A stretch of DNA of 59,815 nucleotides, filler included, from Sphacelaria rigidula (lineage: Eukaryota), in NCBI GenBank assembly GCA_964200075.2. It is 6 parts of 6 records of this genome, joined end to end, with 100 filler letters (N's around TTAATTAATTAA, not from the genome) between each part and the next. Parts side by side here need not be neighbours in the genome. Positions count along the whole stretch, not along the records: positions 19,974 to 29,859 come from CAXNAA020007555.1; 5 more parts are not named here. One strand, written 5' to 3'. Within the stretch, counting starts at the first letter, position 1. Every line of letters begins with the position of its first letter. This document shows, one piece after another, positions 4,196-33,400 of this stretch. Made by a program: the position numbers and the translations under genes. The notes under the pieces were generated by a model. The model searched no databases, was not told where the DNA came from, and worked only from the letters and a program-made list of their open reading frames with translations.

Positions 4196-6026
4196 TCAAA
4201 GGAGTGATGCGTTGGTCCCGCTGTCGTATCTTCTCTCCATCATGGTGAAAATATCCCAATCCAAGATTTTGGAGTATGAGCCCGAATCCTCTTCCCGTGT
4301 ACCTATTGTGTGGTCACGCTTTGAATCCCTCCCCTTCCTCGGGAGGAGTCGGTAATCCCAAGAGGTCAACCCATGTCGCCCCCGGTACATGTCTCGCACT
4401 TCGGAACCGCGGGTTGGATCAGCACTCCCGTGTTCCTTGATGCGTGATCCGTGCACAGGGACAGCTGGACACGACTGATGAAGTCGATCAAACGACACGG
4501 CTGAGCCGATCATGTTGTTGTAGAAGAATAGTATTACATAGCTTGACTTAGCAAGTCAAGGAAGGAAAAGAAGGAAGAGAAAGAAGTGAACTCGTGTGGC
4601 TACCCAACACCGGGGTAAGTGGAGCCCCCCAAGCAGATATTGCGTACGTGAGTACAAGGCATGCGCCTACTATGGTATCAAATCCCACCTCATGTAACTG
4701 TCTCAACCCGTGAAGACAGGTACCTTTGTACCGTAGTTTGTCAGTACTGTAAACTACACTGAAAAAGCTGTTCACATCAACATCCCGTACCCCGTCAACT
4801 CTCGTCAAAGAAACTTTCGTTGAACTACTCAAGCACTCAGGTTGTCAGCGACGGAAACCAAATACTTCTAAAGCAAAACAGTCGCCTATGTCGTGAATCT
4901 AACCGGCATCCTTCCGGCCTAAATGATTTCCGCTTCATCAAGTACACCACCGGGGCCTATCATGGATCGTGTGCGTAACACGACGTGTAATAGCATCATG
5001 TGCAACACGGGTTTATATGTACTTCGGATCTTTGTAGTGGCTATCCCTCCCACATGCTCCTAGATTGCGAAATTACGGGTGGTTAGCTCACTGTTTTGAA
5101 CGTGTTATTGTGCTCTCGTGCTACAGCCGAGAGGCCGTACGCACACGACACATTTGCCTTCCATACTGAAAGTGCAGTACTGTACCTTACTTAACACGGG
5201 GATTTCGCAGATGACCGTACTTGGACAGACTGTACTCTCCGCCGACAAGCTAGCCGTTATTCTCCGCTGATAATTTCACCGCTTTTTTCCGCCTCCTCAC
5301 TCTTCGGCGAAGATCTTCCTTTCCAGCAGCGTGGAAATTCGGGAAAAAGAAGCGAGTTGTGCGGCGGCACGGGTGCACGACGGATGCGGGAGGGGGTAAT
5401 TGAATATGCTCGCGCTCCGTCATGAACAAGATTGATGTAGGATATAGTGCGGCACAAATAGCATCAACCATGTTGCGATTGCGGAGGGTTAGGTAACCAA
5501 TCAGAGGAATAATGTCTAATGACGTAGGTTATGCGAGTATAATCACGTGTGCAGTCCGGGCAATCGAGTCGCCTGACGCCCACTGTCATTCAATCAGTCA
5601 GGTCGGGTTCTGGGTGCTATCTGTCTGCCTTGCTCTGGGGGTTTGCACAAGTGTATGTGGTGAGTCCGTGTGTGTGGTATTGAGTGGGAGAGATTGAACG
5701 TGTGTTATCGTGCGACTGAATGAGGTTGATTAGAATATGATTGAGTAAACAGGGTGAAGAGAAATAATCAAAACGTGTTCTAGACTACTATTATCTACCT
5801 GAACCAAGGTGCTGACTGCTGTTCCCGCACTTGAGTTGTGTGGACGCTTACCCCCGCATCCGAGCGGTTTATTACGCTAGCGGAAGAGATTTACCGCCGT
5901 TGCAGTAGGGTTTGAAATTGGAGAGGGTTTAAGCAAGAGGAGAGTTTAAGTCGAAGAGGTTTTGAGAGAGGTGTATGAAGGTTTTCAGGTTTGAGTAAAG
6001 GTTGACAATTCAACTAGGCTTTAATA

Positions 6027-8650
6027 TGGAAGAGTATCAGCACCCCACGACCATGGAAGAGCAAGTGAAATTTCTAACTGAACAGATAAACAGAATGCAA
6101 CAGACAATGAACAGTACACCGGTGATGTCTGCCAAACAGCACAGCAAGCACCGTTTCACAACCCCAATTCCCACCGTGTTCGCAGCAACAAAAGCATTCC
6201 GCCTTGGTATGAAAAAGCTGTAACATCCACTAATGCCAGGGACAGGTTCGATGTGTTTTACATCCAAATGTGTGCATAGTTCAAGGATGAAGACTGCTAT
6301 GGCGCTTTGTCAGTTGACAACCCCATCAGAACACATCGTGAAAACGAGGAGGATTTGCAAGCACATTTCGGAAACGTAGCTGTCGACAAAGCCAAAAAGG
6401 CCATGAAGATAATTCTCGATAAGGTAATCTATCCCCCCTTAGTAAGGCACATCGATATGCTTGCGAACCCAAGCCAAGCATGAGATTACATCGTCAAGTA
6501 CTACAGGATTCCAGGAGCCAAGGAAAGCCAAGTTGGAGTACGAATGGCGAACCTTGCAGATGGCTAACGGTGAATTGCCGATGAACTTCCTCTCTCGCGG
6601 GCACAGTTCATTCGCACGAAGCGCAAAGAACTCAATGTAGTTCTCTCGGACTCCGTGGCGAACAGGCATATTGTTCGATGCCTTTCGTCAGAATACGAGC
6701 ACGAACGTAGGAATTTATTAGCACTACGCCAGATAGGCATAGAAGAGGTCACCCGACAACTAGAAAATGCGTGCGCTGAAGCGCAATTGACAAGAGAGAC
6801 GCAAAAGACAACCTTGAACCATGCACTTTCCTCCTCTAGTACTAATGGTGGAAGGGGTCATGGTTCACCAGGCAGAAGACAGAACGGGGGCGGGCGAAAT
6901 TCCCACAATTCCCAAAATCAACACAACTACCACAACATCCCTCCAAACCGCACCAATGCCCCACAGCAATCCAGTTTCCATTCCAATCATGGCCCACAGC
7001 AACACTTGGTCATGGTGGTCGAGGGGGGTGGTACTCCCTGACACAACATCAATGGCGACCGCACAGTCCGTGGAATCGGTCGGGACCTGGCCGTGGTATG
7101 GTACACCAACCCAATCAACGAACCTACCAAATTCGTTGTCCATTTATCTGTCCTAACTGCCCTCCTCGCCAGCACCACGCCCAGCAGACCACACCCAGCA
7201 GCACCACACCCACCAATCAACATACACAGGCCCAGGTCACCACCGTTCCTCAGGTAATCAGGGGCCAACACACCACCAACAAAAGTCCAACCACACAACC
7301 AACCATACATCATCACAATCCCATTACCCGCATCCACAACACCAAATCCACAACCATCCACCACAAGCCAACACCGTCCAGCAGACTGATCCCGCTCACC
7401 AGCACCATGAGAGCATTGATAACTTTGTCTATGAGGACGATGCTTTCAACGATGCCGGTTTTGCCCACACAGTACAGTACCATACCTCTCAACATCAACT
7501 GCAGCCGCAACCTACCACCATCACCGAACATCTCCCCTGCTACCCATCACAACCTCCACCGCCAGACCAATCCCACCATGATCCTTCCGCTGCATGACCA
7601 CCATCATACTCGTCACTCTACCACGAGTCATCCGACCAATGTTCCCATCCGGTGAACCCCCACCGAACGTCAACTGCCGAGCTGCCGCGTGCTGATAATC
7701 CTGGTGGTAATGTGTACATGGCGGTTTCTGCCGCACCAAAACAATCAGTTTTTCAGTTTGGGTAATTTCGATGTCAAGGGTAGGATGTTGCTTCAGATGA
7801 AATCTCCGCCCCTTTCTCATTCAGAAATATGGATTGCAGACTCAGGTACATCGCACCACATTACAGGCAACATGACCAACGTTTTCGATACTCGTCCTTC
7901 ACCAGTGGGGGAAGAAAATGTTGTTCTAGGGGATGGTAAAGTGCTACCGGTTAAGGCTGTAGGGAGTCTCAAGTTGACATTTTATCAAGCACGTGCGAAC
8001 AACTCCCCCGATGTTGATGCAGTATGTGTACTGCTGACGGATGTGTATGTTCTGGAGGGAATCCAGTTCAACCTATTCTCTATCCACAGGGCTCAAAAGA
8101 GCCAACAAGTCATCTGCGATAAAGTAGGTGTGCATCTATTCGACGGCAGACTACGTTTCGATTACAACGACCGTTCATCATCACAATTTGCCACACGCTT
8201 GCCATCAACCTACGGACAGCTTCAACTAGTCACTCCTATTGTCGCCACTGAGAGTGACACTACATCCATCCCACAATAAGCTGGTGTTAGTAAGATTCCC
8301 TCGGGTTTTGCTTCTGATCAACAGCGAGTTAGTGTCAGTGAGGTTCCCCCGGATTTTGATTCTGCTCCCCAACGAGCTAGTGCCCGTAAGTTTCCCCCAG
8401 ATTTTGCTTCTGCTCAACAGCGAGTTAATATCGGTAAGATTCCCACAAATTTTGCTTCTATTCCACAGCGAGTCGATGTCAGTAAGATTCCCTCTGATAC
8501 TGTTCCAATTACACGAGAAGCAATTGTCAGCGAGTTTCCCCTGGCTCCGGATTCCACTCCACAGCGAGCGAATGTCAGTAAGATCCCCCCGAATTCTGCT
8601 TCTACCCCACAGCCTGTAAGTGTCGACTAAAATTTCCGCAAATATTCTGG
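6027..8650 (+). mobile_element. Decayed Ty1/copia LTR retrotransposon fragment (gag + aspartic protease); integrase and RT not seen
   Basis: ORF 7689-8279 has the copia protease signature WIADSGTSHHITG...VVLGDGKVLPVKAVGSL...LTDVYVLEGIQFNLFS. Upstream gag-like pieces (RHIVRCLSSEYEHERRNL) are broken by stops and frameshifts. Confidence 0.85.
8272..8645 (+). repeat. 48-bp tandem repeat (~7.5 copies) in the copia pol frame
   Basis: The cagcgag-like anchor recurs at 8322, 8370, 8418, 8466, 8562 and 8610. In the protease frame it reads as a 16-aa unit, roughly PQRVSVSKIPPDFASA. Confidence 0.85.
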
Positions 8651-19973: not shown

Positions 19974-20103
19974 TTGTTTCTGTTTCCCCGGTCTTCCGCC
20001 TCTTGTTTCATTTTTTTTTTTTTTTGCCCCGCCCCCCCCCCCCGGCCTCTCATCGTGGCAGCAGTGCTGAATCCACCCGGCCGCACTCCATCGTCGGAGG
20101 TGT

Positions 20104-21147
20104 TCACACCGCCGTCGTCTTCTGAGCCCGGCTTTGGTGTCGTTGTGCACTCCACGGTAGGGGGGACAGGGAATGCCGCCCCTGCGATCCTGCGATATTG
20201 CCCGCGGGCAGGAAGGCGCCGCAGTACTTCTCCTCTTCCCCTCTCCGATCCGGCGGCGCGAATGACACCACATCCGCGGTGGAGGTGGAAGTAGGAGTTG
20301 CACCTACCGCTGCCACACCGCGTGCAGGTTCGAACGACGGGGTCAGGGGATTATTGACGGCGACAACATCCAGCGAGGGGCGAATGCTTGGGGGCGGCCT
20401 GGAGAGCGCCGCGCGCACACCCGCGCCTACCGCAGGCGTCACCCCCCCTTCGAAGGCCGGTAACCCGCTGCAACAATTTTTCCCTCTTCCACTCCGGAGA
20501 TCCGGCGGTGCGGATGCAACCATTTCCGCAGGGGAGGTGTCTCTCGGAGTTACACCCACCGTCGCCGCACCACGTGCACTTCCCAACCCTGGCGGCAGGG
20601 GACTGTCGACGGCGAAAGGAGCCAGCGGCGGACGAATGCTTGAAGGCGATCTGGATGTCGCCGGCAGACCACCGTGTGTCGCCGGCGCCACCCCCCGCCC
20701 GACGGTCGGCCACCCGCCGCGATATCTCTCTCCTTCACCCTGTAGATCCGGCGGCGGGGGCGACACCACACCCGCAAAGGAGGCAGCTGTCGGACTTACA
20801 CCCACCGCCGCCACGTAGCGTGCAGGTTCGAGCAAGGACGGCAGGGGACTGTTGACGGCGGCAGGAGCCAGCGGCGGGCGAATGATTTGTTCCACGCTGC
20901 GCAAAGGTTCGAACACCGGCATCAGGGGAATGTTCACGGCGAGAGGAGCTTGCGGCAGCTGTATGCTTGGCGACGGCCTCGATACCGGCACGCGCATAGT
21001 GCCCCCCGCCGCCGGCGTCACCCCTCGCCCGATGTCCAGCAACCCGCCGCAATACCTGTCTCCTTCTTCATACCGGAGATCCAAGAACGGGGACGATACC
21101 GTGCCCGCAAAGGAGGTGGCGGCCGGAGTGACACCCACCGCAGGCAC
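20104..21147 (-). CDS. Pro/Ala/Gly-rich ORF made of ~3.5 diverged copies of an ~84-aa repeat, probably transposon-associated
   Basis: The unit AVGV(T/S)P...S.PPDL...RYCGG...GRGV.P...SRP.PSI..P.A..AV..PL.P..EP recurs with the frame kept open for 347 codons. Confidence 0.5.
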   Translation of the reverse strand: MPAVGVTPAATSFAGTVSSPFLDLRYEEGDRYCGGLLDIGRGVTPAAGGTMRVPVSRPSPSIQLPQAPLAVNIPLMPVFEPLRSVEQIIRPPLAPAAVNSPLPSLLEPARYVAAVGVSPTAASFAGVVSPPPPDLQGEGERYRGGWPTVGRGVAPATHGGLPATSRSPSSIRPPLAPFAVDSPLPPGLGSARGAATVGVTPRDTSPAEMVASAPPDLRSGRGKNCCSGLPAFEGGVTPAVGAGVRAALSRPPPSIRPSLDVVAVNNPLTPSFEPARGVAAVGATPTSTSTADVVSFAPPDRRGEEEKYCGAFLPAGNIAGSQGRHSLSPLPWSAQRHQSRAQKTTAV

Positions 21148-22800
21148 ACTGCGTGTTGCTCCCGGCGACGGTGTGTGGGGGGATCGTTCGCGGATAGAAG
21201 ACCCAGGATCGGCTGATTGTTTCGAGGCGGCCGCGCGACCGCCGAGTGCAACCCTCCATCTCCTGTCGTAGTCATATCGCCTCCGTCGGTCATGTCATAG
21301 CATGGCGCCATGTCTGCCGCGCCCGATGCACCGCCATTCGGTGCGGGGGCAACGCACTGTGCGGCCTCTCTCGGGTTTACTGCGGTATTCTCGACGCCCG
21401 GGGTAATTCATCTCACGTCGTGGTATGCGACTCTCCGTTGGTCTTGCCCAACGGCTCCCTCCCCTGCACTGGGTGCGGCCTGCGGCGGCGATATATCGCC
21501 TGCCCGCTTTTCCCTCGTGGGAGCTGTCACAGTCGGGGCTGGTGAGGAGCGAGTCACAGCAGACTCCCCTATGCCCCGAGTTCCTTCGCCCGATGACTTC
21601 AGGTGTTTTCGACCCCGTAGAACACCACCTTCGTGCCACATTGTGCTGATGCCGAGCGGTAACGCAGGCTGTACTCGCAAATCGACTTTGCCAGTGCCGT
21701 GCGGTTCCCAGTCACCCGCAGGTAAGCCTGAAAGTCAGAACCGGCCGGTAGACTCTCAGATCACGTCGCATCGAAAACGCAGTCGCACTTCTTCACCTTG
21801 GCCTGTCGGCCTGCCTGCTCGTGCGCTTCAATCGGCGGCACAATGACATCTCGATCGTAACAAACTGCGACGAACCTCACCCCACGTCGGCAGTTTGCCA
21901 TAATTTTCAGGTGGTGATAGTCCACCATCGCTGCCTCGCCAAGTGCAAGAACATGCGGCGGCGGTACACTGTGGAGCTCGCACGGAAGATCAATCGCATG
22001 TCTTTCTGCGGCGAAAAATCTATTCCCTTGAACGGCATCCGGACACTGCTCCTCTATGAAACGCCTCGGTCCAACAGACTTGTTCACGTGCCGCGCACCT
22101 GAAATGCGGGGCGACGGGAGAGGAGGAGCTGCGCGTTTCAAATATCCCCATGCCGTGATCAATATTAGCGTCGGCTGCGCACTGCCGTATTCCCAATATC
22201 CCACGAATTTACTCCGAGTCATGGGGCACACTGCTTCGTCCCCGCCGATGGGGTTGCGTTTCAATATGTGGAAGGGAGGCCCTCTACAAGACGTGTATAC
22301 TTGGGACATGCAAACATGTTGGATGTCACATGTGGGCATTTCGGCGCACCCTACGAGTTTGGCCAGCCTAAGAATGGATTTAAGCTCGGAAAGCAATATG
22401 CCATCGACACAGGCGAGTTGGGCCGTGATCCGCAGATCGCATTAATCGTCTAACCAAGGGGAAGGTGCCCATCTGCTTGAAGCTTTGGGCCCATATTTTC
22501 TCGTCGATTAAACCCCAGTAATTCCTGTACCTCACGGAGATGGCGTCCATACTAAAATATCTATGAAACCCCCGATCGATGCATTCAGCGGATGACGACG
22601 AAGTTTGGTGTGGCCATTCTCTGGAGCAAGGGGGGACGATAGATACGCTCAACTTTACCTCATTCGTTATCTATCTCGAGATGTGACGTACATGAGTTTC
22701 CGTACCGAAATCAATACACAACGAGCAGAGGCACTGCATGCCCTAAATCTGGATATGGCGTCTCCGTTTTTGAGAGTTGTTCCATAACATTTTGTGTGGT

Positions 22801-23047
22801 GACTAATGCCGAGATAGCCCCCCCATAAAAAGTGCACCGGCACCATCCAACGAACCGGCTGCGATCCCACTATTGGGCTCGTTTGCGCAATTTCGACCAC
22901 ATGAGAGACGTGTCGCATTCCGAAATCAGCTATAACGTCCAAATCAGTCGCGTCGTGCAGCACGAAACCAGCTTTAACGGCAGTTGTGATCATCGCCTTC
23001 GTGCACGTTTTCGGCCGGTTTTGGGGGGGACTATCTCGGCAGCAGTC
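22801..23047. mobile_element. 247-bp MITE with ~25-bp TIRs and a 4-bp TSD (TGGT)
   Basis: gactaatgccgagatagccccccc...ggggggactatctcggcagcagtc, flanked by tggt at 22797-22800 and 23048-23051. Confidence 0.75.
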
Positions 23048-23559
23048 TGGTGAACCGCTAGTGCATAATGAAAAAAATGAAAACAGCTGGTTACTTGTTT
23101 CATTTTTTTTCTTTTTCTTCACTTTTTTATCGTGTTTTAGTGGAGTTTTGAGCAGGAATAAACATTTCTCTTGGGCTTCGTCTCATTGTTCTAGCTCAGC
23201 TTTTAGAATTGTGATTTGAAAGTTAGCATAAAGAACCACAAAAGTGTGCCGAATGAAAAAAAATGGCCATTCCTTTATTTCTTCTTCATAGATGCTAGGG
23301 CGTTCTCGTGAAGAAATGGCCTTTACAATAGTCGAACGCCCGAAGCCCGTGAAGCAAATAATTTTTAAAAAGCTGATCAACGGAGTGTTGTTAATTATGA
23401 TTCGGAGAGCGCCCACACAAAATTGCAATACACGAAAACCAAACGTGGGCCGGTGAGTGGCCTTCGAAATACTGTTCCGAATTTCTACTTATCCGGTTTT
23501 TCAAAGGCGTTTGCTCACCCCAATATGTAGATTTGGAGCGTAAAAATTGGCATGAACAA

Positions 23560-23720
23560 TGCATGTGGCATGAACAAAAACTAACCTCGGCACCAGAAGT
23601 TTTTTTCTTTTCATGAGTTAAGGGCAATAGTCCGTTTTCAGGTATGAGTAAAATGCCCTTAACTCATGAAAAAAAAAGCTTTGGTACCGAGGGTATTCTT
23701 TTCAATGCCCCATGCATTTT
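23560..23720. repeat. Imperfect hairpin with ~65-bp arms inside an AT-rich insertion
   Basis: atgcatgtggcat...cctcggcacca...ttcatgagttaagggca versus tgcccttaactcatgaa...tggtaccgagg...atgccccatgcat. Confidence 0.8.
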
Positions 23721-24035
23721 CCATACCAAACGCATGTAAACGTACACCGTCGTGGTCGCCCAAAAGTCACGGGCAACATGAACAAATCCATCCAGCGCGG
23801 ATATGTTCTGCCCAACACCGCTGTAACTGCGCGCCTGTAATATACGGATCCACTACCTTGCATGTTATACTCTTACCTCCCTTCTTGATGGCCATGGCTT
23901 GCGGGACGACGGCCCCCATATGGAGGACAGCTGTGAAGAGATCATCCGACGTTATGAACTTCTTGCGACTGAGCAGAGAAGTGAGGATGCGATGTTGCTC
24001 CATGGCTCGAGCATTGAGGCTGGTGACGCTCTTCT

Positions 24036-27000
24036 TCAACGCGGACGATTTACCCTCTTCTTTCGTGGATTTGTTGCTTGTGCGGGCGGGGGGGTGGACT
24101 TCAATTTCGTGTTCACCGCACCTTTCACCGTCTTGTCCTTCAACACGGTGTTCTTGATCACGTTCGCCCATATCTCCTCGCAACGACGGGGGACCGCCAG
24201 GACCCCCTCTCCTTCCTTGTCCGTGAGCACACGTCCGTTCAGCGCCACGAGGTTACGCCGGCCGTCGACTCGGAACGCCAGCGAGTCGGGCACCACTTTC
24301 ATGGCCTGCGCGACGGCGGGTTGGCGTTTCTTGAAGAGCTTAGCCACACTGTCGCCCTGGTTCACACCCGGAAAGAAAGCTTCCTCGATTTTCGCTATCG
24401 CCCTCTCGCGCGCCCCGACGATAGCGGCTAGCTTCGCAACAAAGGCGTTTGTGATTGTTTTCGTGGCCCCCTTGTACCCGCGATTCGCGATCTCTTGCCG
24501 CTCGTCCAAAGAGACTCGGAAGTATGCATCGCCGCCCAGCGAGGTGGAAAACATCTTGCACATCACCTCGTAATCATCGTCCGTCATGCGCGTCAGGTCC
24601 CCACAGTGCCCGGCCATAACCACCTGATATTTGCTCTTACCACAGGAGCAGAATATGGGCGCGGCGATGCGAAGACAGGCGTTGCGCAGCTTCAGGTTTC
24701 CGGTGCGCACACCCCTTCGCACACCGGCGTACGCCGGATAGCCCACGAGCAGGAATTGCGTCCAAAACCTGAACGTCTTGTGCGTGCGCGCTTGGCGCTC
24801 GATCCAGTTTTTCACCTGCTGAGCACCCTCCGCGCCTTCCTCGAAAGCAGACCCCAATTCGTCCTGTACCGCTGCCGTTATCACGATCATGAAGGACTCA
24901 TACAGGACCGTGATTTGGTGGTGCGCGCGGCGGTAGTTACTGCCTTCTGCGGCCTTAGCGTCGTCGCCGCCAAAACCTTTCGCCACCAGTTCGATGCCAG
25001 CTCCCTAGTTACGTTTCAGCACTGCCTTCGCAAGATGCCATGGGATATGGAAATCTCCGGGCCACAGAAACAGCATATCTGCATATTCCGGGTGAAATTG
25101 GCAGTAACGACGAACCCAGCCGTAGGTCTCTTCGTCCCCAGATAAGATGGTCCGCTGTCGATCCCCTTCCTTGCCCAACTTCAGCACGTCGCAGATCCGG
25201 TGCAGGGCGCGCTCCATCGCTTGATACTCCTTGGTCGATCCCTCCTGGATGAACATGTGAATGGTCTCTTGCGGCATGCGATCCTCCGGAGTGGAAACCT
25301 GGTCGCAATTGAACGGGGGCGCGGGTATCGAGGGCGTTAGTTGGCATGAAGCCCCATCCGGTCCCCACTCTCACGTATTTCGTTCTGGACGTCCACGGCG
25401 GCGCACCTGAGATTCCGGTCTGTATACTAAATAGCGGCAGCCGATGCAAAAGATGCAGTGGATGCTAACATCGCGACTGACATTGCGACAATAGCGCTTA
25501 GAAATGTTTGATGTAGAATCGCTGGCGCCTACCACCACATTCTCAATTCTTCTCAGACTTCCCGCTTTTTCGTCACGTGCTCTTTCTTCTCTCGCCTGCT
25601 GCGTGCGTTTGAAGGTACGAACGGGCATCGCTATTCACCCGTGTTCAAGTATTGGAGATCGCTACCTGCACTTGTGATTCGGACCTTTGTGTGAAGGACT
25701 GTAAGGGCACGCAGAAAAAACAACGTGCGCCGTCGATGAACCGTCCTCCTCAGGTCACGAAAGAAGTGCAAGGTATCAACCGCCCTCTTTTATTTTTCTA
25801 CACATCATGCGAGACTGCCGCCACGCAGTGCATTTTAAAGAATGAGGACCAGGCCTGCTCCGACAAGCACCTTACAAGTTAGACTTAAGAACATATAGTT
25901 ATCGATTTCCCAGATCGCCCCGCCTCACCGCTATAATGACAGTTGCGTGTTGAAGGCCGCCATGGACGTGGAATAGGGCACACCGCATGAAGAATATATA
26001 TATACAGTATATATATCGGAGCGGCAGTATTTGCTTCTCCAACAGTTAAAGGCAATACTCAGTATCCACGTTTCACTCAACCTCCGGCTAACTTGGATCG
26101 ATTGATCGATTGTCGCATTTTAACCGACCTCCAGGGGTCCAGCTGTGGTGTCATGCTAGACGTACCCAAGAAAAACGAAACTGAAACACGTTCTAAGCAG
26201 GGAAAAAAAAGAAACAGAAAAATAAATAAATGAAAGAGGGGTCGAACAGAACGACATAGCAGACGACGTCGAGAACAAAAAACAGTCATAAAAAGTCAAC
26301 ACAAGCAAAGCACAGAAAGAAATGGCCGACGTAAAACAATATAAAGCAAAACAAGAGGAAAGTACAAAGGAAATAAAATAAAATATAAAGAAACGATGAA
26401 GAAAAAAAAAAGCCGAAGGGATTCAGGGCAGCGGAGTATATACAGACACACACCAGCGGGTACCGCAGAGCTAGTGACTGAGGGCATGATCAACAACCGA
26501 TATGAGAGAACAGGATTTTCCGATCGGCAGCCCTTAACTGTTGAACTGGATTAAATGTTGCCTCGTCGTGTTCCTTTCCGCTATGCAGTATGCATTATCC
26601 GTCGAAAACTTTATAGTTCAACTGTTGAGATCGAGGCAATGGGCTGCCTGTCAACTCAAATTGCACTTACTTGTTGATAGCACCCACCAAAACCACGTGA
26701 CGAAACAATGACCATAACGCTACCCCACCGGCTGAAATCACCCGCGAGCGGACCTACCTTGCGGAGCTCTGCCTCCATGCACGTCTTCTCCCCCTTCCGA
26801 AAACTGCCTGCGCTCCTGCACGCACTCTCCAACAACTCCATGGCATGTTCGTGGAATACACGGTGGGTGTCGTGGCGAGGCAAGGCATCCCTCACACACT
26901 CAAGCGTGAGTTTGTCAAAAAGAACACAGCCGGAGTTGTCGTCGCGGCGGATGCACCGGATTCGTTCCCATGGCTGTCGAGGCTATGAAGGATCCATACT

Positions 27001-27897
27001 GCGACCCAATCAAGTTCATTACTGCCTTCATGTCGCAGTTGTCGAACGCGACCGCAATGGTCTCCAGCCATAGGGGGATCACGCCTTCATCTACGGCGGC
27101 CTGGACGATATCCTCCTCCCGCTTGGAGCATTGACTCTCTGTCAGGCACAGCCCAAGAGCCGCGAGGAAATCGTTGGCTTTCCTGATTCCACCGTGAGAC
27201 CTCAGCACCTGAGCGAACATGAACTCGTGGAGAGTCCTGTTGACCGACGCAGCACGACTTTGACGACCATTGTCGCCAAGAAGTAGGAGAAGGTTTGCCC
27301 CATTTTATGGCGATTGTCGCCCCGCCCCTGGGGGGGTTGACCCTGCGCGCTTTCTCTCGCCCTGTCGAGCCCCATGTCATACCCAAAAACTTCCCGGAAC
27401 AAGATGCGTAACGTTGCCGGCAACACCGCCATATATTCACGCGGCGGCACAAGATCTCGCTCGATGTTCTCTGCATGTGTCTTCCCCTGTGTCACATTTT
27501 TCAGGCCTGGGCTAGACACAACATCCTCGCGTACGATGCGCCCGGCCTTTCGTACGGCTTGTTCACGTTCCCGAGGTGAAAGAGAGGTAGTGTCGGTACC
27601 ATCGCAAGACGCCGCCGAGGTACCCTGGCTCGAAACCCCCCACCGCATGAGGGCCAATTTTCGCTCGAGGTTAGAGATCGTGTGTGCCCTGTCACTGGCC
27701 AGGAGATGAAGTCTCGCTATCTCCTCTGGCGGGTACATCTGCGGCACAAGATATTTGAAATTTTGCCGCCCATCACACCCCGAGGCGCAATCACCCCGGA
27801 GGATCACCAATGTTACGCCAGTGACATCGTCAGCGACGTGGGTCATGATTGCGTGCGATATTTTCCGCAGATGTCCACGGCTTATATCAGGGTACAT
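24036..27897 (-). pseudogene. DUF6589-like / Academ-type DDE transposase, disrupted
   Basis: Ordered motifs: FLAALGLCLT and AFDNCD (~27040), ILSGDEETY (~25135), WPGDFH (~25055), FRFWTQFL, RTGNLKLR, PIF...GKSKY and LDERQEIANRGYK (~24500). There is a premature TAG at 25005-25007, frameshifts, and ~1 kb of inserted or intronic DNA at ~25650-26650. Confidence 0.75.
26090..26496. mobile_element. Probable SINE-like dispersed repeat inserted within the transposase
   Basis: A-rich low-complexity core bounded by repeat-like segments (accgacctccaggggtccagctgtggtgtcatgctagacgtacccaag; gcgggtaccgcagagctagtgactgagggcatgatcaaca), compositionally unlike the flanking coding DNA. Confidence 0.45.
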
Positions 27898-28079
27898 TTA
27901 TTTCTCCCGGTTTTGGAGCACCCAACCCTCCACCTCCACGCCCCGCACGATACATCCCGCACGCAGAGCTACCTGCACGCGATCCGTGGTGGGACACCCC
28001 CCCTCTTGTTCTTGTTCGCCCATCGCGGGGGCTTCACTCGCGGCGTTCCTGTCCTCGTCCTCTCCAGTGGTCCCTCCCC

Positions 28080-29033
28080 TTAAGGCTTTAAGGTAGACGT
28101 ATTAGCAAGTTCAGCACAAGATACGCTTCTCCTCCAACGCCTTCTTCCCGTCCGAGACGAGAACTGTACCGCGCCGGCTCCCCCCCAAACCGTAAGTAAG
28201 CGAGTCATTGCAGCGCACGAAGCACCGGCGGCATTCCATCGTACTCTTCCACCGCTTTTCTTCCGCTGTCGATCGCCGCAAACATCACACCTGTCGCGCT
28301 CCATATACTGTTTGGCATTTTCGAAGGCACAGAACCGGTGGTAAAAGCAGTTGGCTTTTACACACAGGTAGTCCGACGTGGGTTCGTACGCGTCAGTGAC
28401 CGCGGTAGCCGACAGGTCCCCCCTATTTATGTTCCACCAGTCCACCGCAGGATCGATTTTCTCCGGTGTCAGATGCCGAAAGTGAGTGGCGGGGCGGTGG
28501 CAAGCAGCACAAAGTCTGTCACCCTGCGCATGTCTCGTCTTACACCATGTGCAGACACCGACAGCCCAACCACCGACCGCCCCACATTCAGCCTTGCCGC
28601 AGTGCGCCTGCCGACCCTTCCGACGTACCGGAGCAGAACTTCCCCTTGTACGGCGCACCGGTGAAGGCTGCCGCCTTTCCGCGGCCGGCACGCTGGAGTG
28701 GTGATCATGTTGCCGACCGCGCACCCTCCGCGTGGCCTGCCGGCCAGGGGCTTCATGGAGGGTGGCATCCGGCGCCCTTCTCGGGCTTTCCAGCGGCGCC
28801 GGCGCGAATACCGTCGTGCAAGTGAAAGAGTACGAGTCGTTGTGTTGGGCTGCGGAGTCCGCATGCACCGTACCTGTCAGGGGGCTACGCATCAACCCCC
28901 TACCGGCGTCGGTCCCGACGGACCGCTTATGCAAGGTGCCGTCTCGTTCCGTGCTCCCGGCACCATCGGGCCTGGTCCTCTTATGCCTGAACTGCTGCTC
29001 CCCTGACCCCGGGCGGCTCCCGCCGGAATCCAC
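28080..29033 (-). CDS. Cys-rich (multiple CxxC) N-terminal region of the transposon protein
   Basis: HCGKAEC, CTWC, CAAC, CVKANC..HRFC and CDVC in a 317-codon open frame directly upstream of, and on the same strand as, the transposase. Confidence 0.55.
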   Translation of the reverse strand: MDSGGSRPGSGEQQFRHKRTRPDGAGSTERDGTLHKRSVGTDAGRGLMRSPLTGTVHADSAAQHNDSYSFTCTTVFAPAPLESPRRAPDATLHEAPGRQATRRVRGRQHDHHSSVPAAERRQPSPVRRTRGSSAPVRRKGRQAHCGKAECGAVGGWAVGVCTWCKTRHAQGDRLCAACHRPATHFRHLTPEKIDPAVDWWNINRGDLSATAVTDAYEPTSDYLCVKANCFYHRFCAFENAKQYMERDRCDVCGDRQRKKSGGRVRWNAAGASCAAMTRLLTVWGGAGAVQFSSRTGRRRWRRSVSCAELANTSTLKP

Positions 29034-29859
29034 AGGCGCCTCCCTTCTCTTCTGCGCGCGCGCGGGCGGGGTCTCGCAAATTCCGGTGCAACGCCGGCGT
29101 GCCGGGCTTCATTGTAGGTTTCCTCCTGGCTTTCCCCGCCCGCCGTTACCGGAGGGCCGCCGGAAATTGAACCTGCGCCGGCGCCCGCAGCGCGGAGAGG
29201 AGAGAAGAGGAGAGAAGAGGAGAGAAGAGGAGAGGAGGAGGTGGTGAAGGTACGCCCTTACGCTTAGTATAGGTGCACATGACTGGTGCTCGATTCCTAC
29301 ATCTTGCACGTCTTACTGAGGCAGCATGCTGAAACAAATTCGCGAAGCCTCAAGCTGCTTCTGCATGACGACCATTCACCTGTGCGAGTGGTAGATTCTT
29401 GTGCAGAGTATCCCGCCGCCGCGAGCCGAATATCCGCGAGGATTCCCGCAACCACCTGCATGCGGTCGCAAACACGCAGGGAAAGTAGTCACGATGGCGA
29501 TCGAGGCCAGGGGTGGGAGGGGATATTGACACGCGTTCGAATTACATCACGACAGGCTGTAGTCTTCCTGTGCGCACATTTATATCGAGAGGATGCTGCA
29601 TGGTGGGAATTATGTGCCCGTTCCTTGGTCAGACGCCGGATACATGTTCAAAGTTCCCCAAAATGAAATTCCACCGCCTATATTCACCGGATGTTAATGA
29701 GTGCGACACTCATTAACATCATACGGTAACCTTCACCGCTCGTGAAGTGAGGCCAAGCTCAAACCATGTATGTTAGCCCGATTTCCGGTAACACATGGGG
29801 GCTGGGGCGGGGGCGGGGGAGGGGTGTACTGATTACCATGCATGCCATAGTCATCAGAC

Positions 29860-29959: not shown

Positions 29960-30424
29960 CGTCTGGAAATTACTTGGTTTTAGTATGATGAGTCGACTCG
30001 TGACGAATCAATCCCTAGGCTTCATTTCAGCGTTGCAATCCAGGTACACGCCGACGCAGCCGAAACATGTGGAATGGCACAAAAGTTGCGTGGATACCCC
30101 TTGGACCAGCGATCAACTTTTTTGTTCCTTTTGAGCAATCAGGCCGAAGAAATCGTGAATTTGGTGATTTTGAGTGGTGATGATTTGTCCTCACCGTGGA
30201 ATATTGCACGCGGCGACTTAAGCAGGTACAACGAGAGACTCGCCGCCAGTCACTGTACCATGCTAGATGATTTATCACGTTAGTTCCGGGATTTATGTAT
30301 GACGGCGAAGTGAGCGACATATGCGACACCCTTTAGCATAAAACTGCATTCGTCACATCATCTTCACATATCTCGTTTACCCTAGCCAGGGAACATAACT
30401 GACACACCAGTAACGCTACGCCAG

Positions 30425-33400
30425 GTTTTTACGCGAGGGCTACCGCTTGCCGAAACCACTGATCAACATCGTCGGACGTCCAATGATCTTCTGGCTTCTT
30501 GACAACCTCAAGTTTCGACACGAAGACACTCTGTGGATCGGAATCCAGCGAGGCCTATGCTCAGATTATGCAGTTGAAGCGCGTCTGCGGAAAGAGTACC
30601 CATTCCTCGATCTTCGATTGGTGTTGCTAGACTTTCAAACACGTGGTGCTGCCGAGACTCTGTTTATAATGCTCCAGGTGACCCCATGCTTTGCGCCGTT
30701 TTTGGTGTCATTCCTGTTTTTCAAGTGGAAAATACTTTGATGTGGGAGCTAAGGGATGAGATAGCGGGGTGAATCATCGGGCCTACTCTGCAGCACTTGA
30801 TTTTGTAACGATGTTGCAGTACACGTGAATCATTAATAGTTACTGATTTCCATTCAGCGCTACTGTTCATATATATATATATATATATTATATACTCCCA
30901 TCAAGTGGCGTGACCCGGTGTTGTTTTTTTCGGCGTTTTCACAAGCAGGGCATGGCACCAGAGGAACTCAAGCGCAAGACTATATCTTTGGACTGCGACA
31001 CCCTGTACTTCTCCGATGTGCTAGGCGACTTTCGGGATTGCCAACCCGAGTGCGGCTGTAGCTTTTACTTTGAAGATGACGGAACAAAGGTAATAGGGTG
31101 TGTGCTGATCCCGAAGTCGTACAGCATCACATCGGGGCGGTGGTGCGAGATGTGTGGTGTGGTGGCGAGTGGACAAAATCCGACTCCTAGCAGGAGCAAC
31201 GAAAGAATCAGTTGTTCGCCATCCATGAAATGGAAACATGAGCCCAAATGACTGAGCGAATCGGTCCCTGAACATTCAACGTTTATGGAAAGGCTATGTC
31301 GCTAATGGACAACGCCATGTTTGACAAGGCTATGTTTCCTGGAGCTACCCACCACCGTTTTGAGATGTGATTAGTTCGTTGTGTTCGTTCTACAAGAATA
31401 AATGTGAGCTCTCTGGACAAGTACCCGTCACCCAAAAGAGTGACCGCGTGCAGTCTGGCGCAAATCGATGAAATTTTCAGCACACCGTAACAACTGCATT
31501 CCTCAATACTCGCTCCTTTCAATCGTTGTCTCGACGATGCCTCTGCTTCTTCTTTTGCCCAGCCCATATTCTCGTACATTCGTTTTGAGCCGAGCACGAA
31601 TAAGATCGTCGACATCCGGGAAAAGGTAGCCGTTTCTCGGTATGCCAATACCGGTGCATACGCGTTTCCGTGCGGGGAGATGTTGCGCGACGCCTGCTGC
31701 GGGGTGCTGGATAACCCTGTCGGAAAGGCAGGAGAGTTCTACACGTCCACCATCATCGAAAAAATGATTCGCAACGGTAAACAGGTCAGTTAGATCCGTT
31801 GCGACCGTACCGTCGGTTATGTGTCATGTTCGATGTTTGCTCTACTTTTTGTCGTTAACATTGAGAACCGAGATGTCATGTTCGCACGATATACGGACGT
31901 CGCCCTACATTCTTGCGCTTCGCGTGTACTGTGAAATGCAGTCAGTCTACAGTAAGCATATGTGCATGCTACTCTGCAGACGTATCAATGAATGGCGTAT
32001 TTCAACCCATCTTCCTACCTGTACTAGCGTGTCGACACGACGAAATGGGGCAATATCGATATACACATGTCTACGCTCTTGCAAATCCTCCCGTCTATCT
32101 ATTTTGCACTGCCGTTAGTTTGTGGGTATACATGTGTCTAGCTTTTGGTGCGTGGGCACTCCGGTACAACTCCGTGCTTTCTTGGACGCGCTTAGGGGAG
32201 GCACAGTGCTACCACGGCACAAGGCTCGGTTTTGCTTCGACCTCGATCGCACCCTGTTAGCTGTTTCCACGCCGCGCCGGGGAAGTGGTCAGGATGATCG
32301 TGTTGAACCGCTTGAAAGAAACATACGCCTTCTCCAGGTGATCCAAGGTTTGCGTTGAGATGGTATAATGACACATCGGTACGTAGACATAAGAAACGGG
32401 GCGTGGAGCTTCCGCGTCAAGGCGACTATCCGATGGCAACGGTTCGATATGATACGTATGCAGACAACATCGCATGGCAGAATTATACCACCAACGTGAA
32501 CGGCCACCTTTTAACCCGCATCATCATGTAGGTAGGTGTCAGCTATCTCACATCGACGTTTGATCAAATGCTCGCTAAAATACTGCAACGTATGCGATTC
32601 GACAGCCGCGAGTTGTTCAAGTATGCGCGTCATGTATTCGCTTATCGATAGATATGCCTCTTACGATAAACTAACGCACAGGAGTTGAGAAGCGCGGGGC
32701 ACTACATCATAGTTGAGACATCACGAAAGAGACTGAGACAAGGCGACAGCGGTGAAGATGACAACATATCCGGACCAGGCTCCTTGACGTTGGAGGTAGG
32801 AGGTGCTACAGGCCCGGCCGCGCTTATCCGAAGATTGTCATAACTGGTGACTTCAACCGAGCAGTGCACCCAACAATCCCGACTAGCTCTCGAGGGCAGC
32901 CACATAAAAAAATCGTGTACTTGTCGGATGTCTGCCGCGTTCACGGAGGAGCCCTTCTATGAACACATCTCGATTTGTGAGTGATGGTGATAGCAAAACC
33001 TGTTGTTGCTGACACCGAGTAAAAGAAGCATGACGATCCAGGGTCGGTACTGCCTTGGTCTCATTTGTAACACAACATTAACAGTCGCTGCGGGCGCTAG
33101 GGATCTGCTTCGACGAGATTTACTTTGACAGGCCCATGGCGGACGTGTACGTAAACGGCAGGGCAGGTATCGACCACGGGGATGTTGAAAGAGAGGTGAG
33201 ACTTGTATGCACGACTTGTGTTATCTTTGCTCGTACGCGGTGTCGTAGTCCGGAGCCTCTTGGCACGTGTCTCAGCATAGTGTTCAAAATAATGCAATGG
33301 GCGGTGTTCAGACTTACTGTAGCTCTAATGGGTAACGGTTTTACGATGCGGCCGAGCAGTGTAGAAGCCAGGCTCTCAATGCTAGCAACATATCTGGGTA

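Follow-up and report, generated by a model that had tools for sequence, protein, structure and literature searches.

The stretch analysed here (the window) is 59,815 nucleotides from the brown alga Sphacelaria rigidula (assembly GCA_964200075.2, 244 Mb in 27,214 contigs). It is a chain of approximately 10-kb contigs joined by N spacers, and our finding is confined to one of them, CAXNAA020007555.1 (G000:C7555; positions 19974-29859), both ends of which are assembly breaks. On this contig lies what we read as a decayed copy, truncated by the contig break on either side, of a many-copy brown-algal DNA transposon of the AcademX type, a reading to which we assign a probability of approximately 0.88. 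An original prediction, made from the sequence alone, had proposed an Academ-type transposase and an XPG-superfamily nuclease in a brown-algal host, and all three are upheld. Six-frame translation places the motifs on one strand in the order then given, all on the minus strand: a Cys-rich segment (28620-28200), AFDNCD (27049-27032), SGDEET (25142-25125) and PGDFH (25061-25047), and further downstream a TAG stop (25007-25005), DERQE (24506-24492), HAIDL (Asp at 21991-21989) and CYDR (approximately 21862-21851). These motifs are not chance occurrences, because every catalytic position is conserved across sister copies. The copy is dead, as had been recognised from the TAG and from frameshifts, and ordinary in itself: we located six stops (28113, 28104, 27900, 25007, 21763 and 21601) and six frameshifts (near 29080, 28190, 27290, 26985, 24090 and 21600).

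Read along the minus strand, the 5' part of the element is interrupted at approximately 29820, some 1.47 kb inside its 5' end, by the end of an unrelated high-copy repeat (29810-29859, unstranded), where sister copies diverge and match depth spikes; 32 of 40 matches to the 5' region cover only this contig end. There follows a 5' subterminal non-coding region (29354-29820) with 80-88% matches to five sister contigs, whose 5' terminal inverted repeat (TIR) lies approximately 1.47 kb further out, as judged from C5947 (TIR at 4273, match at 5741-6194). A putative small upstream coding exon (29380-29455), bordered by AG and GT, bears an ADIRLAAAGYS motif kept in C21345, C1330, C25130 and C5034, and would be followed by a putative 207-bp intron (29173-29379) with GT...AG borders and a phase that fits the open frame of C5034; here the sisters are too close to show a loss of homology. 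The large coding exon (26758-29172; three stops, four frameshifts) comprises a low-complexity N-terminus, a Cys/His-rich zinc-finger region (28200-28620; C-x4-C, CxxC, H, CxxC, H, then C-x4-C) and the N-terminal part of the transposase with the first catalytic Asp. Intron A (25299-26757; 1459 bp, GT...AG, phase 0) separates it from the transposase exon (23877-25298), which carries the second Asp (GDEET), GxxH, a helical insertion and the catalytic Glu (DERQE), together with the TAG and the frameshift near 24090. Beyond intron B (22099-23876; 1778 bp, GT...AG, phase 1) lies the N-terminal half of a 5' nuclease (21600-22098; HAIDL, CYDR and PIxAxEQ, with the stop at 21763), which is 33-67% identical to 18 sister segments, at ratios of nonsynonymous to synonymous substitution (dN/dS) of 0.10-0.18. 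The remainder (19974-21599) is a low-complexity insert that splits the nuclease and is made up of direct repeats of approximately 250 bp (families D1-D3). A 46-aa block within it is 48% identical to the insert of sister C16536 (E 2e-06); the insert as a whole has no close sister among its 4 matches in the genome. The contig ends before the nuclease half with GEGE, SVDTD and GCDF and before the Cys-rich tail, and this missing half was not located in the genome. Rfam gave no match. We estimate the full-length element at roughly 13-16 kb.

This layout revises the original boundaries in several places. The element had been drawn from 19974 to 29250; it passes the lower contig end and its upper limit was too short, the element reaching approximately 29820. 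The nuclease does not span 21761-24183 as proposed: it starts at 22098, positions 23876-22099 are intron, and 24183-23877 belong to the transposase. Both of the reported VDG motifs are present, but outside the nuclease, one in the C-terminal region of the transposase (24269-24261) and the other in a high-copy repeat within intron B (22408-22400). Two of the supposed nested insertions are in fact conserved GT-AG introns, and there are indeed repeats nested within them. Separately, the repeat at 29810-29859 is very abundant and occurs at many contig ends, and is a likely cause of breaks in the assembly.

At introns A and B the homology of 11-12 copies stops at the GT donor and resumes past the AG acceptor. 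The window introns are longer than those of two sisters (644 and 771 bp for intron A; 424 and 624 bp for intron B) because repeats have landed in them, at approximately 26131-26500 in intron A, with a spike in depth, and at approximately 22376-22700, 22801-23047 and 23270-23730 in intron B. The repeat at 22801-23047 resembles a high-copy miniature inverted-repeat transposable element with 29-bp TIRs, and joints 22585-23409 and 22610-23277 suggest that it sits inside another high-copy repeat. Intron B is absent from the C9893 lineage, where the transposase reads straight into the nuclease; we observed its absence in C9893, C19798, C8629 and C12991, and its presence at the same position in the C16536 and C10900 lineages. 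From these alignments, the distribution of intron B points to intron loss or gain within a DNA transposon.

When spliced at the sites of introns A and B, sister C16536 reads without a stop for 1,633 codons from the contig end to its terminal stop codon, and C20591, 96-97% alike, has one earlier stop; C16536 is the best candidate for a recently active element. We surveyed 46 contigs (45 fetched plus that of the window), 39 of which hold the C-terminal half of the transposase. The nuclease N-half follows directly on the same strand in 29 of these 39, 23 of them also with the nuclease C-half and Cys-rich tail, and most of the others end at a contig break or are deleted. An Ectocarpus protein prediction, P0196, has transposase C-half, nuclease and Cys tail in one chain. 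The metagenome locus L189:2-4366, one frame of 1,454 codons, has a DUF6589 match (50 bits; 25% to the algal query) followed by weak similarity to the N-half of the nuclease (hhalign probability 50%, E 1.6e-4), and likely represents another lineage of the same kind. Since the splice sites are conserved and in phase, C16536 is stop-free, and P0196 and L189 have the same fusion, the predicted joining of transposase and nuclease in one intron-split open reading frame is well supported. Among 8,000 candidates screened for longer fused relatives there was none, which is weak evidence. Three runs that we guess to be RNA contain a 4.2-kb contig from a sister approximately 80% alike, across the transposase exon (23934-25583), with a joint at 25280-27014. 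As the letters in between are not known, splicing is neither shown nor excluded; we take these contigs as a hint of transcription only. Contigs of 1-1.6 kb in the same runs start at 28615 (28615-29162), which is the deletion junction of C5034.

The transposase exon of the window matches DUF6589 (PF20231), a family presumably linked to Academ, at 17.8 bits (E 0.0015), below the cut-off of 27 bits. That cut-off is passed by its homologues (P0001 at 32.7, P0003 at 42.5, P0007 at 28.7 and L189 at 50-54 bits), and 8 of the 9 members of alignment A5 match at E <= 0.01; DUF6589 is the best family match. With a sister exon as query, 19 relatives were retrieved; 10 carry a DUF6589 label, and the 10 that could be named are all from brown algae (Ascophyllum, Scytosiphon, Laminaria, Ectocarpus). 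The Academ-type DDE signature (DNxD, second D, GxxH, DxxxE) is present, and its catalytic residues are kept by most of the genome copies that cover them: 22 of 27 for the first Asp, 30 of 33 for the second, 34 of 35 for the His and 36 of 38 for the Glu. Its DNxD, GxxH and DxxxE elements agree by eye with the published Academ hidden Markov model (HMM) in the columns compared, consensus columns 1-40, 220-270 and 450-465 of the portion of the PMC5751038 supplement consulted; there the profile starts DNxD, has g-f-f-H at columns 220-223 and ends DxxxE followed by r and K, a pattern that the algal copies share. The zinc-finger ligands are conserved in 10 aligned copies of two lineages, a region for which Pfam returned only sub-threshold zinc-ribbon matches and no assignment. 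ESM Atlas gave no usable match for the window exon. With a sister model, the VIA-align rows that cover the core are the transposases of the P element (6p5a; Z 7.5, root-mean-square deviation (rmsd) 6.2 over 245 residues), Hermes (8edg; Z 4.8) and Transib (6pqn; Z 4.5). These share an RNase H-type core with a helical insertion (model residues 15-311), and differ in their 5-7% identity, in TSD (target-site duplication) length and in a C/DxxH motif. A side observation concerns an insert of approximately 270 aa in the transposase helical region of the C10900 lineage (L045:3673-6123), which contains a faint EsV-1-7 cysteine motif (E 0.018, below cut-off).

The second enzyme is recognised by its predicted fold. 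We modelled homologue P0021, 39% identical to C16536, from an alignment with 28 others that include the window N-half (predicted local distance difference test score, pLDDT, 75; predicted template modelling score 0.76). Foldseek matched the model to XRN1 (E 6e-7), FEN1 (5e-4) and EXO1 (7e-4). In VIA-align the top 17 rows all belong to the 5'-nuclease superfamily, with Z falling from 14.6 to 7.8 before a drop to 5.9; XRN1 scores 14.6 (rmsd 4.1, 347 aligned residues), EXO1 13.9 (3.8, 271), FEN1 12.5, and GEN1 and XPG 11.5. Seven acidic residues, which we take to be equivalent to the FEN1 active site, are kept in the motifs IDL, YD, GEGE, DTD and GCD (27/29, 24/28, 22/23, 22/24, 20/24, 22/24 and 21/23 genome copies). 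The family thus resembles FEN1, XPG, EXO1, GEN1 and XRN in fold (Z 11.5-14.6, rmsd 3.8-4.8, 233-361 residues) and in having these residues in the expected motifs, and differs from them in its 10-14% identity, its lack of a Pfam match and its fusion to a transposase. We conclude from the model that the element encodes a predicted 5' nuclease of FEN1/XPG/EXO1/XRN fold, a member of the XPG superfamily of which the window holds the N-half only, in keeping with the PIN/XPG similarity looked for. A profile search with the nuclease matched 673 cluster representatives; the relatives considered here are the best 150 of 673, and among 10 looked up, three are named brown algae and one is annotated as 'hypothetical'. 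In comparisons between subfamilies, the transposase has a dN/dS of 0.17-0.30 and the nuclease one of 0.10-0.31 (with some dS values near saturation); for the two closest copies the respective values are 0.38 and 0.66. These ratios point to purifying selection on both enzymes in mobile copies.

The termini, not evident in the window contig as had been anticipated, were located in sister copies. The 5' region of the window matches five other contigs, which carry deletion derivatives: in C25130 a 5' end adjoins a segment matching 27465-29603 at 83.5%, and in C5034 a segment matching 28615-29817 at 81% runs into the nuclease C-terminus and a 3' end. Most of 30 loci (the best 30 of 41 matches) share the 5' boundary CAGTC(C/T)TGCGC(C/G)AAAA, and the 3' boundary (best 30 of 44 matches) is its inverse, so the ends of the family are short CAGTC...GACTG inverted repeats, absent from the window contig. 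In the coding copies C1330 and C2943, homology breaks off precisely at this 3' repeat. Among the 16 copies with both ends (1.2-2.6 kb, non-coding by size), an exact 4-bp TSD is found in 8 and one with at most one mismatch in 11, a 5-bp TSD occurs in one, and none occurs at 6-10 bp; 9- or 10-bp duplications, exact or with one mismatch, were found in 0 of 16. Shuffled pairings gave a mean of 0.066 exact 4-bp matches, and at most one, in 2,000 trials. One of the eight exact cases (TTTT) is equally compatible with 2 or 3 bp, and one row is off register by one base. The median distance of an inner CGG from the end is 36 bases on one side (n=31) and 34 on the other (n=25), with no long/short asymmetry. 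Ends of the C9893 and C10900 lineages were looked for and not found. An Ectocarpus element, TcMar-N5_Ec32, is described in supplement 3 of PMC12477816, as far as that source was available, with CAGTC-GACTG ends, 1,344 bp, a TA TSD and a preliminary class; by description only, it resembles the non-autonomous copies in ends and size, not in TSD.

The family is far from a single-copy host gene. A 322-aa transposase segment has at least 73 matches in its own genome, at 29-78% identity when the self-match is set aside, and a sister's nuclease C-half has at least 117; both are lower bounds, with 124 of 125 candidates scored for the transposase and 113 of 413 for the nuclease. Many moved copies are internally deleted, and most copies are broken. 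A midpoint-rooted tree of 25 transposase rows, comprising algal rows and one metagenome row and including one long row, resolves three lineages in the genome: the window clade (99/99), the C9893 clade (100/100) and the C10900 clade (100/100). An Ectocarpus protein falls with the C9893 clade, and proteins of Laminaria, Scytosiphon and Ectocarpus fall with the C10900 clade. Because these clades are mixed with proteins of other hosts, the lineages predate the splits of these hosts or have moved between them.

Academ elements carry either an XPG-like nuclease (AcademX) or a RecQ-like helicase (AcademH), and have been found in a red alga. AcademX, a lineage reportedly set out by Kapitonov and Jurka in 2010 and by Kojima in 2020, has YR...YR termini, a PHD finger, a Cys8 finger and an XPG-type domain fused with a Cys-rich tail. 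The brown-algal family is like AcademX in its DDE transposase with Academ motifs, its nuclease as accessory enzyme, its TIRs and 4-bp TSD, and the fusion to an XPG-type domain with a Cys-rich tail, a tail present in sister copies. It differs in its brown-algal host, in the long low-complexity insert splitting the nuclease, in lineage-specific introns, in an N-terminal zinc finger not assignable to PHD, in a fold nearer XRN1/EXO1 than XPG, and in a sequence too far from named non-algal proteins for these to be found. With AcademH it shares the Academ-type DDE core and the DUF6589 match, whereas AcademH has a helicase and a 9-10 bp TSD; Pfam scans of the long reading frames examined showed no helicase, although no search was aimed at helicases. 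In the part of PMC10045372 consulted, the TSD is 9-10 bp in AcademH and 3-4 bp in AcademX, and this length is tied to helicase versus nuclease. Other sources, in the portions available, report Academ from fungi and animals or mention it by name only (PMC5751038, PMC10294476, PMC10799480, PMC4455052). On sequence grounds the family would work like AcademX: it has the DDE signature, the XPG-superfamily nuclease, the TIRs and the TSD length of that lineage, and is assigned on these features, the tree rows being algal plus one metagenome row.

We propose, tentatively, that the nuclease trims 5' ends, a role whose chances we put somewhat short of even. Zinc fingers would bind the transposon ends; the DDE core would nick their 3' ends and join these to target positions staggered by 4 nt; and the fused nuclease would remove the 5' flanking strand or overhang left at each end, which would let the element finish excision or integration without waiting for host flap-repair enzymes. 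The same element might instead use its nuclease on the donor site, resecting the empty ends to steer repair, or on RNA or R-loops. XRN and EXO1, which score above FEN1 and XPG in our fold search, are processive 5' exonucleases of RNA and recessed DNA ends, as such a role would lead one to expect. We nevertheless consider it unlikely, though a serious contender: the fusion to the transposase and the purifying selection among mobile copies suggest a step from which the moving copy itself gains, and TSD length tracks the accessory enzyme across Academ lineages (PMC10045372, in the part consulted).

Several observations weigh against our AcademX-type reading. No named animal, fungal or red-algal Academ protein appears among the matches, so no tree places the family in AcademX. 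Evidence from the transposase fold is modest in strength, if coherent: the AlphaFold2 model of the C-half (pLDDT 68) omits the first-Asp strand, and Foldseek found no match for it. For the nuclease, Pfam searches of 16, 9, 19 and 4 proteins gave no XPG/PIN match for any copy, profile A1 retrieved from PDB sequences only small Cys-rich inhibitors (E >= 0.045) and no nuclease, the fold was modelled on P0021 and not on the window copy, and the best fold match is XRN1, tied with EXO1 within 1 Z unit, with XPG lower. The TSDs come from non-autonomous copies only, and C1330, the one near-complete coding copy, has a degraded 5' repeat approximately 13.6 kb away and no clear TSD. Finally, splicing of introns A and B is a prediction from sequence, and 5' trimming by the nuclease is a proposal.

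Some of these observations would also fit a separate Academ branch that works like AcademX and differs in origin, a fungal DUF6589/AcademH-like transposase having independently acquired an XRN-like 5' nuclease. In ESM Atlas the features of homologue P0001 are nearest to DUF6589 clusters of Basidiomycota and Arthropoda (0.95, low recognition), XRN1 comes first in both fold searches, and animal AcademX is missing from the named matches. Even so, the near tie of XRN1 with EXO1 blunts the second of these points and the third comes from word-based searches that are blind to distant kin, among the best 150 of 673 relatives; domain order and Cys-rich tail match AcademX, as does the 4-bp TSD (PMC10045372, in the part consulted). 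We regard such an origin as improbable. Its bolder form, an old third branch spread across brown algae, formed by a separate fusion of a DUF6589-type transposase with an XRN-like 5' nuclease and with C16536/C20591 as a recently active member, we hold to be quite improbable; if true, the helicase-or-nuclease module would have been swapped more than once, and TSD length would follow the module and not the transposase.

Capture of a nuclease gene by another DDE superfamily (Sola, P, hAT, MuDR, Kolobok or Dada) is very improbable. The fold matches of the core are the P element, Hermes and Transib, but we know of no Academ structure in the PDB, and such neighbours would then be expected to lead the ranking. 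Sola elements of Ectocarpus also have a 4-bp TSD in the available parts of PMC12477816; against this, the DUF6589 cut-off is passed by homologues. Membership in hAT, P, MuDR, Kolobok or Dada we reject, as the motif is GxxH and not the C/DxxH of superfamilies so listed in the portion of PMC9587614 consulted, and the TSD is 4 bp of varied sequence and neither 7-9 bp nor TTAA. An origin as a family of host genes or as a cluster of endogenous viral genes, suggested by the introns, by the endogenous viruses that brown algae carry and by the faint EsV-1-7 motif of one lineage, is hardly credible beside TIRs, TSDs, deletion derivatives and a majority of broken copies; viral contigs held no transposase relative (the nuclease was not scanned there), and the TSD result refutes this origin unless those ends are unrelated to the coding copies.

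On the AcademX-type reading, what is new is the extension of a known kind of element to brown algae. The curated Ectocarpus library of 2025 names no Academ in its accessible text or five readable supplements (PMC12477816), and its 51 unclassified DNA families may include such elements unnamed. That the lineage is undescribed, as first suggested, is supported within the literature searched, which yielded no brown-algal Academ paper and did not cover Kojima 2020 or Repbase. Few cut-and-paste superfamilies have received as little study as Academ, and the purpose of the nuclease in AcademX is a standing question. In a lineage distant from animals and fungi, this family provides defined ends, conserved active sites, a TSD length and a fused reading frame free of stops. 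It lends support to the proposal that TSD length is linked to the accessory enzyme, and could serve as a test system. It also fills a gap in brown-algal repeat annotation, its proteins sitting in public databases as unnamed host genes.

Elsewhere in the window, another contig contains a Copia-type Pol fragment (7656-8276, plus strand; Pfam Pol_BBD, E 1.5e-10), and the next contig holds exons of a probable host nucleotidyltransferase-like gene, unrelated to the element (30414-31790, plus strand; weak Pfam match only).

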